A stretch of DNA of 64,000 bases from Minisyncoccota bacterium (GTDB lineage: Bacteria; Patescibacteriota; Minisyncoccia; UBA6257; JAGOQP01). The DNA is taken from NCBI GenBank assembly GCA_017991375.1, contig JAGOQP010000006.1, positions 3,200 to 67,199 on the forward strand, in the 5' to 3' direction. Position numbers and translations under genes: made by a program. Below are positions 44,856 through 49,332 of this stretch, piece by piece; positions within the stretch are counted from its first letter, which is position 1; the number at the start of each line of letters is the position of its first letter. The notes under the pieces were generated by a model, which worked only from the letters and a program-made list of their open reading frames with translations, was not told where the DNA came from and made no database searches.

Positions 44856-45989
44856 CTATTGAATAACCCCTCCCCCTAACGCACGTCCCCAGTGAGAATA
44901 AAACACCGCCGATTGCCCAGACGCGGGAAACAATTTTTCTTTTGAACCAAACAAAAGAGTGCCGTTTTGCGTTGAGCCCGCGCCAACGAGCGTTGCGCGT
45001 AAAAGTCGTTGACGATATCGCACACGAACAAGACAGTTAACGCGTTGTTTGTGATCGTACGTCGCACGCGAAGCGCTATCAAGCCAATTAATATCAGTGA
45101 TAGCGCACTCATTGCCATACAAACATTCATCACCCTCATATGCGACAATGAGTTGATTACGCGTAATATCTTTTTTTACCACATAGTACGATTTTCCTGC
45201 TGTGTTTGAAAATCCATGCTTCTGACCGACAGTATAAAACCATACCCCATCGTGCTCACCTACTTTTTTGCCATGCATATCGATAATATCGCCATGAGTA
45301 ATGGGAATGTTGTTTTTGAGAAATTCATCAAACTTAAACTTTCCTAAAAAGCACACCCCCTGTGAATCTTTTTTATCTGCCGTTGGAATCCCAGCTTTGC
45401 GCGCAATAGCGCGCACTTTCTTTTTGGTCAGATGCCCAATAGGAAAGAGAATTTTTTCAAATCGCTCGCGCGGAACCTGCCACAAGAAATATGTTTGATC
45501 TTTTGATAAGTCATTTGCCTGGTAGAGAGCATGCTCTTTTTGTATCAACCACTTACCAAAACTAACTTTTGTTTTTAGACGAGCATAGTGCCCAGAGGCG
45601 ACATAATCGGCACCCAACTCTATGGCCTTATCAAAAAACAGCCCGAATTTGATAGCGCTATTGCACACCACATCGGGATTTGGCGTGATGCCCTTTCTAT
45701 AACCATCTAAGAGATACGACACCACGCGCTGTTTATATTCTTTTTCAAGATCAAAAACATAAAAAGGAATACCCAAGTGTTGGGCTACCCGTCGAGCATC
45801 CTCTCCCTCCTTATCTTGACAGCCATCAACATTGTACCCACGAATAAAGCCGCCGATCACTCGATATCCTTGTTTTTGCAAAAGCAATGCCGCGACAGAC
45901 GAATCCACGCCTCCAGACATCGCAACGAGAACTTTTTTATTTTTTTTATTTTTGGAAAACATTTCTTCTAAGGTTATATGTATTTCCAT
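44856..45989 (-). CDS. mnmA: tRNA-specific 2-thiouridylase MnmA
   Basis: PP-loop KVLVAMSGGVDSSVAALLL; the C-terminal domain is conserved. The start may be at 45962, which overlaps the RT 3' end by 17-44 nt. Confidence 0.9.
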   Translation of the reverse strand: MEIHITLEEMFSKNKKNKKVLVAMSGGVDSSVAALLLQKQGYRVIGGFIRGYNVDGCQDKEGEDARRVAQHLGIPFYVFDLEKEYKQRVVSYLLDGYRKGITPNPDVVCNSAIKFGLFFDKAIELGADYVASGHYARLKTKVSFGKWLIQKEHALYQANDLSKDQTYFLWQVPRERFEKILFPIGHLTKKKVRAIARKAGIPTADKKDSQGVCFLGKFKFDEFLKNNIPITHGDIIDMHGKKVGEHDGVWFYTVGQKHGFSNTAGKSYYVVKKDITRNQLIVAYEGDECLYGNECAITDINWLDSASRATYDHKQRVNCLVRVRYRQRLLRATLVGAGSTQNGTLLFGSKEKLFPASGQSAVFYSHWGRALGGGVIQ

Positions 45990-46929
45990 GCTTTATCAAT
46001 CCAAGATAGGAGTTGACAACTTGAGAGCTGTTAGTAGTCCGCAGTTTTTTTATCATCTTTCTTTTTGTGGAAGTTCTCAGGATTCTGTGGTCAGGAAAGG
46101 AAACCCAACCAAGAAAGTCGATGCCCGAAGATAATGCTTTTATAGAAACCTTGCCGGAATGAAGATGAAGTTTAAGGTTATGTTCGAGGAAATGGGATGT
46201 TTGGGAGATGAGGTTGATGAGATAATCCCTGTTTTCCGACAAAACAACAAAATCATCCGCGTATCTGATGTAACACTTCACTCTGAGGATATGCTTTATA
46301 TATTGATCAAAGGAGTTCATATAGACATTAACAAAGAGCTGGGAAGTGAGATTCCCAAGGGGAAGACCAACATCATCTTTTGTTGAGTGAAAACTGTTTA
46401 TGATTTCTTCAAAAAGCCAGATAATACCCTTGTCTGGAATGTACTGTTTGAGAGTAGAGATAAGAATTTGATGGTCTATATTGTCAAAGAACCTTCTGAT
46501 ATCACACTTGAGAGCCCAACAGGTTTTGGTGTTGTTCTGGCTGACTATATAAAAATAATTTCTGAGTTGATTTATGGCCTTGTGAGTTCCTTTATTGAGA
46601 CGACAAGAATAAGATGTATGGGAGAAAGTTTTATCAAAGAAGGGATAAAGGATTCTGTAGATGGCATGGTGTAATAATCTGTCTCTAACTTGAGCTTTGC
46701 TGATAATTCGAGGTTTAGGGTCAGATATTTTGAATTGTTCGTATCCTCCGTGTTTGTAGGTTTTGTTTTGAAGATCGTTACGAAGTGATATAATATTATT
46801 CATCAGTTGGAATTGAAATAACTGGACATCAGATTTGTTTCTTTTTCCTCTGATAAACTCCCTCCAGGCGAAAAGCAGATTATCAATACTGATAATATCT
46901 TCAAAGTTATGATTCAATATAATTTTCAT
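45946..46929 (-). CDS. Diversity-generating retroelement reverse transcriptase
   Basis: Collinear similarity to Bordetella phage bRT: NLLFAWREF.RGKR, DPKPR.IS...RDRLLHHAI, YSCRLNKGTH, motif A CDIRRFFDNIDH, motif B GLPLGNLTSQLFVNVY (the DGR SQ variant), motif C IRYADDFVVL, and GIDFLGW. Confidence 0.88.
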   Translation of the reverse strand: MKIILNHNFEDIISIDNLLFAWREFIRGKRNKSDVQLFQFQLMNNIISLRNDLQNKTYKHGGYEQFKISDPKPRIISKAQVRDRLLHHAIYRILYPFFDKTFSHTSYSCRLNKGTHKAINQLRNYFYIVSQNNTKTCWALKCDIRRFFDNIDHQILISTLKQYIPDKGIIWLFEEIINSFHSTKDDVGLPLGNLTSQLFVNVYMNSFDQYIKHILRVKCYIRYADDFVVLSENRDYLINLISQTSHFLEHNLKLHLHSGKVSIKALSSGIDFLGWVSFPDHRILRTSTKRKMIKKLRTTNSSQVVNSYLGLIKHGNTYNLRRNVFQK

Positions 46930-46945
46930 AAAGATTTTTCTTTAA

Positions 46946-46955
46946 CCCCCCCCCC
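46946..46955. repeat. C10/G10 homopolymer tract in the divergent RT/avd promoter region
   Basis: cccccccccc lies 17 nt upstream of the RT start codon and between the putative -35 and the TATAAT (46968-46973) of avd. Confidence 0.8.
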
Positions 46956-46990
46956 GCAACAATCTGACTATAATACAGAAGCTGGTTGGT

Positions 46991-47317
46991 GTGTATAAGT
47001 TATGGCATGAGTTTCTAAATCATTTTCATAAACAATCCAGATACACATTGGGAGAAAAGATTGATAATTTGTTTATTGAAATAATAGAGTTAGTTTTTAC
47101 AGCTATACATCTGAGCAAAGATCAAAAATTTCCGTATCTGCAGAAAGCCAGTATAAAGTTGGATATTCTAAAATTTTTTGTTCAAATGACTTGGGAAATG
47201 GGAATTTTGGACAATAAAAAATATGTTTTGCTTTCGGAAGATTTAGAAGAAATTGGTAAAATGTTGGGAGGATGGTTGAGGCAGTTTATAAAAAACTCCC
47301 CGCAGAAAGCGAGGTGA
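46991..47317 (+). CDS. avd: DGR accessory variability determinant (Avd, four-helix-bundle protein)
   Basis: 108 aa. The C-terminus EDLEEIGKMLGGWLRQFIKN matches bAvd VLIAEVGRILGSWIARVNRK. GTG start. Divergent from the RT. Confidence 0.65.
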   Translation: MYKLWHEFLNHFHKQSRYTLGEKIDNLFIEIIELVFTAIHLSKDQKFPYLQKASIKLDILKFFVQMTWEMGILDNKKYVLLSEDLEEIGKMLGGWLRQFIKNSPQKAR

Positions 47318-47321
47318 AAAC

Positions 47322-47456
47322 AAAACGACTTTCGGAATCCAACGACGCGGCAGTAGGAGTTGAAGTTGTTACTGAGCCAATTGTCGTTCCGATTCCACTG
47401 GCCATCGTTGAAGTTCAGGTACTGAACGTTGCGATTGCCGTTCTCGTCGAGCAGAA
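47322..47456 (-). repeat. DGR template repeat (TR)
   Basis: 135-bp direct repeat of 47794-47928. At all 12 mismatched positions this copy has A on the minus strand, and the codons are AAC/AAT-rich (NGNRNVQYLNFNDGQWNRNDNWLSNNFNSY). Confidence 0.85.
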
Positions 47457-47741
47457 ATGTATGCGACACCATCTATGCCACCATCCCTTAAATACTTTCG
47501 GGATTGAATATTGCTTGGAATCTCCTCCGACAATTATCGGAGTAATTCTCCAGCGTCGCATACCAAGTTGTTTTATTTTTGGAAATATGCAAACTCCCTG
47601 ACGCAAGGCGTACCCGGCGTCACTCTCATTACACATATTTCAGAATTCGGTCGCGTAAAGCCCTGCCTACCAGTAGGCAAACCGCACGCATACGAACCTA
47701 ATATCCGTTTCCACCATATCAGTTTTGTTGAAAATTTAAAA

Positions 47742-47788
47742 GGGACCAAGGAGTCAAGCGCGGCAAGGCGCAAGAACTCCAAGGTCCC
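47742..47788 (-). promoter_or_regulatory. GC hairpin immediately 3' of the VR (DGR target-site hairpin / terminator)
   Basis: Minus strand: GGGACCTTGGAGT-tcttgcgccttgccgcgcttg-ACTCCTTGGTCCC followed by a T-run; central TT-TT mismatch. It lies 10 nt after the target-gene stop. Confidence 0.6.
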
Positions 47789-47793
47789 AAGGG

Positions 47794-47928
47794 AAAACTA
47801 CTTGCGGAATCCAACGACGCGGCAGCAGGAGTTGAAGTAGCTACTGAGCCAATAGTCGTTCCGATACCACTGGCCAACGTGGAAGATCAGGCACTGAACG
47901 TGGCGATTGCCGTACTCGTCGAGCAGAA
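47794..47928 (-). repeat. DGR variable repeat (VR) at the 3' end of the target gene
   Basis: It differs from the TR at 12 positions, all TR adenines (coding strand). Encodes ...LLDEYGNRHVQCLIFHVGQWYRNDYWLSSYFNSCCRVVGFRK*. Confidence 0.85.
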
Positions 47929-48391
47929 CCGTACCGGGGAAGATCAGTACGAACTTCTGCCACTCTTCCGGAACGAGTTCCGGATGGGTAGCTAGACGCT
48001 CGAATGTCCGGTTGCCCGCAGGGAAGGTCTTGGCGAGAGAGCGCTTGAGCATCTCCTCGCCATTAACGCAGGACTCGCCGGCAGAGCAGAACTCGATCAA
48101 CTCGAGCTCCACGTCCTTGCCGGCAAAGGGCTCTTCGTGGTTTTCTGCGACCTCCTTTGCCCAAGGGGGCAGAGTGAGAGCGGAGGGGAGAACAAGGCGA
48201 ATGATGTTGCGCGCCTTCCGCCCAGCCTCCACGATATCGCCAGCCCATTTGTCAATGAGCGGCGACCCGTCCTTGAGGGCATTGTACACGTCCTCGATTG
48301 TGCCACCAAGCCGCTCGACCGCCCTGAAAAGGGCGATGAAAAAGCTGGCGGCAAACCCAAGCCCACTCACGATTGAAGTATTCTTAGCCAT
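47798..48391 (-). CDS. DGR target (variable) protein, small secreted/membrane-anchored
   Basis: Start trimmed to MAKNTSIVSGLGFAASFFIALF (signal/TM) with RBS GGGGGAGGAAG. The VR forms the C-terminal 44 aa. Confidence 0.7.
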   Translation of the reverse strand: MAKNTSIVSGLGFAASFFIALFRAVERLGGTIEDVYNALKDGSPLIDKWAGDIVEAGRKARNIIRLVLPSALTLPPWAKEVAENHEEPFAGKDVELELIEFCSAGESCVNGEEMLKRSLAKTFPAGNRTFERLATHPELVPEEWQKFVLIFPGTVLLDEYGNRHVQCLIFHVGQWYRNDYWLSSYFNSCCRVVGFRK

Positions 48392-48491
48392 ATCTTCCTC
48401 CCCCGGCCCCTCGTTCCGACTCCCATCGGAACCCCAGACCGTTTTGTAGCGCTTCACTCCTCCTCGAGCTCATCTCTTAAAGAAGTTCAGC

Positions 48492-48574: not shown

Positions 48575-48640
48575 GTATTTTAGCGTGCTTTTAACAAACA
48601 GATTATAACATATTATATGCTATTTTGTCAAGTGCTTTCG
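48575..48640 (-). promoter_or_regulatory. Conserved near-consensus promoter plus leader, copy 3 (drives the DGR target gene)
   Basis: TTGACA (48626-48631), spacer aaatagcatataatatgt (18 nt), TATAAT (48602-48607), leader ...aaaagcacgctaaaatac. Confidence 0.65.
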
Positions 48641-48759
48641 GGATGAAATTAGTTATTTGAAAAAATATAAACACATCGTTTTAAAAAGCAAAGGCGCTCT
48701 CTCAAGCGCCTTCCATCTCCGTTTTTAGTTATTATTAATAATTGCCAATTACAAGTCAT

Positions 48760-49332
48760 CTACTTTCCCTTCTCCACTCTTTCAACATATTCTCCGGTTT
48801 CTGTATTTATTCTAATAATATCCTCCTCTCCAATGAAGAATGGAACATTGACTTTGGCTCCTGTTTCAATAGTAACCTGCTTTGATCCCCCAGACGCAGT
48901 ATCCCCTTTAATCGCCGGGGGGCATTCGGTAATCGCAAAATCCATTTTGATGGGAAGTTGAATACGAATTAACTTTTCGTTCCACATAAGCGCGGTGGCT
49001 TCGGTATTGGCCTTGAGAAACTGAGACGACATTCCCAGTTGATCACTCGTGAGCGAAAATCTGTTCTTAGGATTTCCCACTTCATCAAACCAATACTGGC
49101 CACGATTCTCATAGAGAAAACGCACCTGTTTGCGATCAATATCGGCCTCCTGAAACTCATCTGATCCTTGAAACGATGTCTCTTTGACTTTGCCGGTAAT
49201 AACTTCTTTAAGCTTCACCTTCATAACCGGCTTTCTCTGTTGCATACGTAAAAAATTGGCCTCTAAGACCTCATAAATTGAGTTTTCAAATTCAATGATG
49301 TGCCCTGGACGGACTTCGTTATATGAAAGCAT
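48760..49332 (-). CDS. efp: Elongation factor P
   Basis: 190 aa; KOW-like N-terminal domain with the GKG loop region; three-domain length. Confidence 0.9.
   Translation of the reverse strand: MLSYNEVRPGHIIEFENSIYEVLEANFLRMQQRKPVMKVKLKEVITGKVKETSFQGSDEFQEADIDRKQVRFLYENRGQYWFDEVGNPKNRFSLTSDQLGMSSQFLKANTEATALMWNEKLIRIQLPIKMDFAITECPPAIKGDTASGGSKQVTIETGAKVNVPFFIGEEDIIRINTETGEYVERVEKGK

Follow-up and report, generated by a model that had tools for sequence, protein, structure and literature searches.

A conserved repeat near the 5' end of avd as a probable frameshift switch on a Patescibacteria diversity-generating retroelement

Introduction

The restraint of mutagenesis by diversity-generating retroelements (DGRs) is a long-standing question, since well-adapted variants would be lost if diversification went unchecked. 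In the prototype, the DGR of a Bordetella phage, the accessory gene avd lies on the same strand and is not known to carry a homopolymeric tract of the kind described here, and work in that phage system established that DGR reverse transcriptases (RTs) need Avd for cDNA synthesis. Here we describe a run of ten cytosines (C10) at the 5' end of avd in a DGR encoded on a 64,000-nucleotide (nt) stretch of a Minisyncoccota genome (GCA_017991375.1, contig JAGOQP010000006.1, positions 3,200 to 67,199; hereafter the window, whose own coordinates are used throughout), and we argue that this tract is probably a simple-sequence contingency switch that gates translation of Avd and hence DGR activity.

The closest described DGRs are those of the candidate phyla radiation (CPR), among which the architecture B3 'TR-(avd)-RT', named for the template repeat (TR), avd and RT, is given by Wu et al. 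2018 (PMC5758913) for 90% of their CPR DGR set; this class corresponds to DGR clade 2 of Patescibacteria in Roux et al. 2021 (PMC8144416). The locus in the window resembles such elements in having an RT, an inverted avd, a TR and a target with a 3' variable repeat (VR), in the adenine-specific mismatches between its repeats and in a target protein without a recognisable domain.

Results and discussion

A C10 tract conserved in position across related DGRs

The tract lies in the local sequence ...ctttaa CCCCCCCCCC gcaacaatctgactataatacag..., and on the minus strand it forms part of the RT leader, in which 16 nt separate it from the RT start codon (ATG, 46929-46927). The features on which the argument turns are the following.

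46946..46955, plus strand: C10 tract, read as G10 on the RT strand, within the 5' portion of the avd frame
46909..46911, plus strand: inferred start codon of avd (ATG), complementary to RT codon 7 (His, CAT)
46909..46998, plus strand: short open reading frame (ORF) of the C10 state, MIQYNFHKDFSLTPPPQQSDYNTEAGWCV and then a stop codon (46996-46998), with its first 7 codons antisense to RT codons 7-1
46946..47317, plus strand: avd reading frame, open from just after a TAA at 46943-46945 to its stop codon
45946..46929, minus strand: DGR reverse transcriptase of 327 amino acids (aa), RVT_1 match with E = 4.6e-25

A sequence-only reading of the window had drawn attention to the C10 run, placing it 17 nt upstream of the RT start and calling such tracts rare in this DNA. 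The letters bear out its coordinates, and the distance holds when taken from the nearest C to the A of the RT ATG. The rarity is equally clear, since no other run of C or G longer than 6 occurs in the window (G+C content 44%), the next-longest being eleven C6 runs and a single G6. Expected numbers of C runs of at least 10 per window are 0.04 under independent bases and 0.05 under a first-order Markov model, and those of G runs of at least 10 are 0.003-0.009.

Related loci were collected by alignment of RT homologues, giving 80 loci from species-representative genomes and 80 from metagenomes, and the repeat was counted in 137 loci; the fetched RTs are 56-66% identical to that of the window. In every locus with sufficient upstream DNA, avd adjoins the RT gene directly and in divergent orientation. 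A G6-G14 run on the RT strand is present in 113 of the 137 loci, with a modal length of 9-10 (14 loci with G8, 34 with G9, 35 with G10 and 16 with G11) and a 3' end mostly 13-21 nt before the RT ATG. Five loci (L067, L093, L098, L103 and L131) carry a (GT)n or (CT)n repeat in the same place instead, so that it is the repeat character of the site, and not a particular sequence, that is conserved. Across the 726 kb of these loci, G/C runs of at least 7 number 109 at the tract site and 17 elsewhere, of which about 3 are genuine by inspection and the rest are either this very tract next to a mis-set RT start or contig-end artefacts. Every locus has an intact avd domain downstream of the tract (E between 1e-30 and 1e-47). 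Comparison of orthologous DGRs, a check that the sequence-only reading had itself proposed, thus establishes the tract as a conserved, site-specific feature of this DGR class.

Beyond the source genome, we found the lineage of the window in two more samples, one (L002, SRR11235434) 100% identical to it over 4.7 kb and the other (L001, ERR7015365) 98.8% identical, and both carry C10. Homopolymers are error-prone in sequencing, which is the argument for regarding the tract as a chance run or a sequencing or assembly artefact without function. The probability of this is negligible, given how few such runs are expected per window, the identical run in three assemblies, and the homologous run at the corresponding site of over 100 related loci, which stem from many projects and have the closed genome CP066687 among them, set against its near absence from the remainder of the 726 kb. 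In the assemblies of two loci, L049 and L072, runs of N or an implausible C41 run stand where the homologous tract lies, which shows that the site tends to break or confuse assemblers.

The avd start codon lies upstream of the tract

In the relatives, the conserved N-terminus of Avd, LPIIQK, begins 7-10 nt after the tract; inspection of the flanks revealed that its third codon positions vary synonymously. ATG, GTG and TTG are often absent between the tract and this motif. Because the bAvd domain follows the tract directly, often with no start codon in between, translation must come from upstream and pass through the tract. A start codon after the tract was considered and rejected, as the conserved Leu codon is TTG, CTG or TTA depending on the locus. 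In the window, the ORF lister begins avd at GTG 46991, from which bAvd (PF22296) is matched at profile positions 14-106 with E = 6e-15 (6.4e-15), and with the upstream extension the match covers positions 2-106 of 107 with E = 1e-15, the domain itself beginning near 46967.

The upstream start is the ATG complementary to RT codon 7, and codon usage on the RT strand bears the mark of it. RT codon 7 is CAT 65 times and CAC twice, as against a ratio of 605:457 for His codons elsewhere in these genes (p = 3e-13). Within RT codons 1-7, none of the 75 Leu/Ser codons is TTA, CTA or TCA, compared with 1049 of 3731 (28%) elsewhere (p = 3e-11), and since the complements of these three are stop codons, their avoidance supports an avd frame on the opposite strand. 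The antisense frame from ATG to tract is open in 49 of 50 loci, and an ATG-initiated ORF runs into the tract in all 114 non-redundant C-run loci. Eight loci without a repeat (L016, L018, L077, L083, L099, L105, L113 and L154) are all in frame from the His7-complement ATG, compared with 34 of 106 C-run loci (Fisher p = 2e-4), and the NCBI annotation of CP066687 has an in-frame Avd of 135 aa that overlaps the RT start by 12 nt. The start of avd is therefore placed upstream of the tract and inside the RT gene, which makes the tract coding sequence: the first C of the run falls at about codon 13 of avd as inferred here, and the 5' ends of avd and RT overlap antisense by 21 bp, at 46909-46929 in the window and at the homologous sites. 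One consequence is that the seemingly 'invariant' His7 and the biased first codons of these RTs may be imposed by the avd start across from them and not by RT function.

The two starts are paired reciprocally, in that the Met1 codon of the RT is complementary to His7 of Avd and the His7 codon of the RT to Met1 of Avd. In addition, the conserved RT motif FEDII, when read on the avd strand, becomes TGATAATAT, which resembles an extended -10 element and is situated 10 nt ahead of the avd ATG, a placement that hints at a nearly leaderless avd mRNA.

The position of the start codon also bears on the mechanism put forward in the sequence-only reading, namely that the tract is a spacer between a TTTAAC -35-like hexamer and a perfect TATAAT that would drive avd, such that tract length would tune avd transcription.

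46969..46974, plus strand: TATAAT, the supposed -10 of avd, inside the avd codons for Thr-Ile-Ile; its minus strand has weak -10-like hexamers in RT sense

Homopolymers in promoter spacers are a known class, as in the Bordetella fim genes, and a perfect TATAAT does exist 13 nt after the tract, at 46969-46974 and not, as had been given, at 46968-46973. Its distance from TTTAAC, however, is 22 nt (about 21 had been claimed), which is far from functional, and the last base of TTTAAC (46941-46946) is already the first C of the tract. A sigma-70 scan found no plus-strand promoter at the tract, and the hexamer belongs to conserved avd codons (ACT ATA ATA, T-I-I of LPIIQK), with relatives reading ATTATT, ATTATC and similar, so that the -10 is not conserved; a transcript starting from it would also miss the conserved Avd N-terminus, and codon bias and frame both locate the start of translation upstream of the tract. 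We consider it very improbable that the tract works as a promoter spacer. On the minus strand, promoter-like sites lie at 46997..46970 and 46995..46967 (9/12 matches), and a survey in RT sense upstream of the G-run in 114 loci revealed a weak cluster, with a -10 ending 11-17 nt before the run in 22 loci; this was too weak to build a reading on.

Frame states within and across loci

From the ATG at 46909, the C10 state is one base out of frame with avd (46991 - 46909 = 82 = 3k+1), and in silico translation gives a peptide of 29 aa. With C9 or C12, the same ATG yields an Avd of 136 aa, MIQYNFHKDFSLTPPPRNNLTIIQKL..., and the C9 product matches bAvd positions 2-106. The avd frame is closed by a TAA (46943-46945) right before the tract, so that all three assemblies of the lineage are in an OFF configuration. 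The sole canonical start codon in frame in the C10 state is GTG 46991, use of which loses about 12 positions of the domain.

The 106 C-run loci with a single ATG-initiated ORF entering the tract divide into 34 that are in frame, 42 with a surplus C and 30 that lack one, a distribution not different from uniform (p = 0.35). An intact gene behind a 5' repeat whose frame is random across genomes is the classical signature of simple-sequence contingency, and it argues against a directional programmed frameshift. The latter was entertained for a subset of 49 loci, in which the phase with a surplus C was in excess (26 vs 11 and 12), and was abandoned when this excess vanished in the full non-redundant set. 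Gene callers handle loci of this class unevenly, producing avd products of 46-135 aa or no call, and avd in these genomes is thus routinely mis-annotated as truncated, missing or frameshifted.

The frame counts also speak to a function of the run on the RT strand, where the G-run might be a translation or stability element of the RT leader (for example an extended Shine-Dalgarno-like, G-rich element) or might form non-B DNA, with its effect on avd being tolerated. The run does sit at a fairly constant 13-21 nt from the RT ATG and is followed by a Shine-Dalgarno-like motif (AGAAG/AGAGG), and the weak RT-sense promoter-like sites would put it near the 5' end of the RT mRNA. Poly(dG)·poly(dC), (GT)n and (CT)n are, moreover, all able to form non-B DNA. 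Mere tolerance by avd should, however, keep the length in frame, and only one-third of loci are; a Shine-Dalgarno sequence would have to lie closer to the ATG than 13-21 nt; and loci without the run keep the same gene arrangement. Folding of both leaders gave no stable structure on the tract on either strand (z-scores 0.32 and -0.26), and Rfam has no family at the tract, with only chance matches elsewhere. A role on the RT strand as the explanation of the tract is accordingly doubtful in our estimation.

Length polymorphism and the case against a switch

We next considered tract length within populations, defined as contigs encoding exactly the same RT protein together with near-identical fetched loci, with lengths taken from the assembly consensus. 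Five of 11 populations show variation at the repeat between identical or near-identical flanks. RT protein P0073 is accompanied by G10 in 7 contigs and G9 in 3, P0112 by G11 in 4 contigs and G10 in 1, and P0089 by (CA)11 or (CA)8; L046 has G9 and L160 has G10 between 400-nt flanks that are 100% identical on both sides, and the tract also differs between L130 and L135. One further RT protein, P0025, was uninformative, the tract lying inside the queried protein.

Several observations weigh against reading this variation, and the tract as a whole, as a switch. All 3 assemblies of the window lineage have C10, and P0018 (6 contigs), P0062 (4) and P0092 (9) are without length variation. Some of the differences of ±1 between assemblies could be homopolymer consensus errors, an origin that is unlikely for (CA)11 vs (CA)8. 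In none of the five polymorphic populations is an observed allele clearly in frame (one example has C9 and C10 where C8 or C11 would be in frame), which fits neutral drift between two OFF lengths in what is a small sample. An in-frame share of one-third is also what an irrelevant tract would give, so the case for its relevance rests on the repeat-less loci and the codon-bias tests. The OFF state itself may be incomplete, as a truncated Avd could conceivably be made from GTG 46991, which is preceded by AGAAG, and slippage of RNA polymerase or ribosomes on C9-C11 could make every allele leaky.

The last of these points leads to the main rival explanation, a constitutive slippage or recoding site at which RNA polymerase or the ribosome (+1/-1 on CCC-C) slips, the tract being an attenuator that keeps Avd low and noisy. 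Every DNA length would then yield a small in-frame fraction, and there would be no heritable on and off. Runs of C9-C11 permit perfect re-pairing in both directions; avd is intact and conserved everywhere though two-thirds of loci are out of frame; the window and L001 are both C10, and yet their VRs have diverged at TR adenines; and both alleles of the polymorphic populations are out of frame. Programmed frameshift sites, however, keep a fixed frame relation, whereas here the three phases are equally common, the replacement of the run by dinucleotide repeats in some loci points to slippage at the level of DNA as the shared property, and the eight repeat-less loci are simply in frame. We judge slippage during expression unlikely as the sole explanation, although the two are not exclusive and it may act alongside DNA-level switching.

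Activity of the DGR in this lineage

Between the window and L001, the VR has 22 differences, 19 of them at TR adenines (against an A content of 26%), which indicates that the DGR has been active since the two separated. Over the 2,095 nt of 45694-47788, which hold RT, avd and TR, the two have zero differences, and the flanks differ by about 1.1-2%, a rate at which around 23 differences would be expected over this block; the pattern suggests that the cassette may have been transferred, or been subject to gene conversion, between strains recently.

L001 also carries an insertion of 1.08 kb (L001 1215-2293; window 48633-48645) encoding a protein of 335 aa with HTH_38 and HTH_32 domains that may be an IS30-like transposase. 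The insertion point coincides exactly with a perfect TTGACA-18-TATAAT promoter (48631..48602, minus strand) upstream of the target gene, and the insertion may silence or re-wire expression of that gene in L001.

Remaining features of the DGR and its surroundings

47322..47461, minus strand: TR, on the strand of RT and target and convergent with avd, 89% identical to the VR
47794..47933, minus strand: VR, at the 3' end of the target gene
47798..48457, minus strand: DGR target gene, 219 aa, without a Pfam domain

TR and VR form a 140-nt direct repeat in which 13 of 15 mismatches fall at adenines of the first copy on the minus strand, which identifies that copy as the TR and the second as the VR. 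On this strand the order is target with VR, TR, inverted avd and RT, as in the B3 architecture, and the locus combines the marks of a DGR: a DGR-type RT, a TR/VR pair, adenine-biased mismatches and an avd gene. The RT has thousands of relatives among Patescibacteria DGR RTs, its closest ones being of the Patescibacteria DGR type, and it is 100% identical to a protein of a Candidatus Pacebacteria genome bin. A search of the PDB with the Avd sequence gave no significant match.

Around the target gene (window 47600-48400), G+C content rises to 53-58%, a sharp compositional island against 32-39% in RT and avd and the window mean of 44%. A terminator-like hairpin with a T-run (47298-47314, minus strand) follows directly on the 3' side of the TR and shares bases with the end of avd. 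The TR transcript could terminate there, and the hairpin could act on both of the convergent transcripts. The target-gene leader holds a perfect 18-bp inverted repeat (48492-48509/48543-48560) with a 33-nt loop, downstream of the consensus promoter and ahead of the start codon at 48457, its sole Rfam match being a chance hairpin. The DGR is adjoined by efp (48760-49332), the gene of elongation factor P (EF-P), which rescues ribosomes stalled on poly-proline, and an in-frame avd tract would read Pro-Pro-Pro; this proximity is probably a coincidence, since the neighbouring genes differ at other loci.

A probable frameshift switch on Avd

Under the contingency-switch reading, translation of Avd would start at the ATG complementary to RT His7, pass through the complement of the RT start codon and then enter the repeat, which when in frame would encode Pro-Pro-Pro, with the conserved four-helix domain of Avd beginning only afterwards. 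Slipped-strand mispairing during replication would alter the repeat length and thereby move the Avd domain into or out of frame with its start codon. OFF alleles would presumably leave the cell without functional Avd, and if Avd is needed for cDNA synthesis here as well, each such change would start or stop mutagenic retrohoming within populations, stochastically and in a way that is heritable yet reversible. The window would be in the OFF state with C10, and C9 or C12 would be ON; the switch is expected to be translational, with a period of three in tract length, and not transcriptional. As at known contingency loci, the repeat lies near the 5' end of an ORF, and in silico its length shifts the frame. 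The suggestion of the sequence-only reading that a hypermutable homopolymer acts as a contingency switch is thereby supported and extended, in that the tract is conserved, varies in length and has dinucleotide substitutes, while the mechanism it proposed, a change in promoter spacing, finds no support.

More broadly, we see about even chances that most Patescibacteria DGRs carry a built-in contingency locus in avd, so that targeted hypermutation would itself be phase-variable, a two-level form of bet-hedging, and the antisense 5' ends of avd and RT would have co-evolved to accommodate the switch, their Met and His codons being paired reciprocally. Were this so, most cells of a population would have frozen variable proteins, and a small minority, renewed all the time, would be actively diversifying. 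A repeat that gates avd would bear directly on the control of DGR activity, and a heritable, stochastic gate of this sort would explain its restraint and so answer that question for the largest cellular clade of DGRs.

Comparison with known systems

Phase variation by simple sequence repeats and DGRs are each known, and the combination proposed here, a conserved repeat gating avd together with antisense-overlapping starts of avd and RT, appears to be new. Term searches in the texts of the two papers that describe this class, Wu et al. 2018 and Roux et al. 2021, returned no homopolymer, avd frameshift or overlap of the avd and RT starts, and the latter never uses the term avd; a literature search on DGRs with homopolymers, slippage, phase variation and frameshifts, the scope of which did not extend to the main CPR DGR paper (Paul et al. 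2017), found no description of the tract.

Two known kinds of system share single aspects with this locus. Promoter-spacer phase variation (the C-tracts of Bordetella fim, the TA repeats of Haemophilus hifA/B, Neisseria opc and porA) likewise involves a homopolymer that lies between divergent genes and is proposed to affect their expression, but here the tract is inside a reading frame and is flanked by no conserved -35/-10 pair. Programmed frameshift and transcriptional slippage sites (prfB, dnaX and the transposases of insertion sequences) likewise have a slippery run separating a short ORF from the functional frame, but the frame relation here is not fixed (34:42:30) and no stimulatory structure was found.

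The closest likeness is to the intragenic poly-G/C contingency loci of Campylobacter jejuni, Helicobacter pylori, Neisseria and Haemophilus, which share with this locus a G/C run of 8-11 a few codons after the start, an AT-rich genome, length variation between near-identical strains as seen here in the assembly consensus of related populations, the presence of all three frames among genomes, other repeat units at the same site in some homologues and a downstream ORF that stays intact despite an out-of-frame consensus. Unlike in those loci, which control surface antigens or restriction-modification genes, the switch predicted here from sequence would gate an accessory factor of targeted hypermutation, whose start codon and first 7 codons lie antisense within the divergent RT gene, and the repeat spans a very broad radiation and not a few pathogens.
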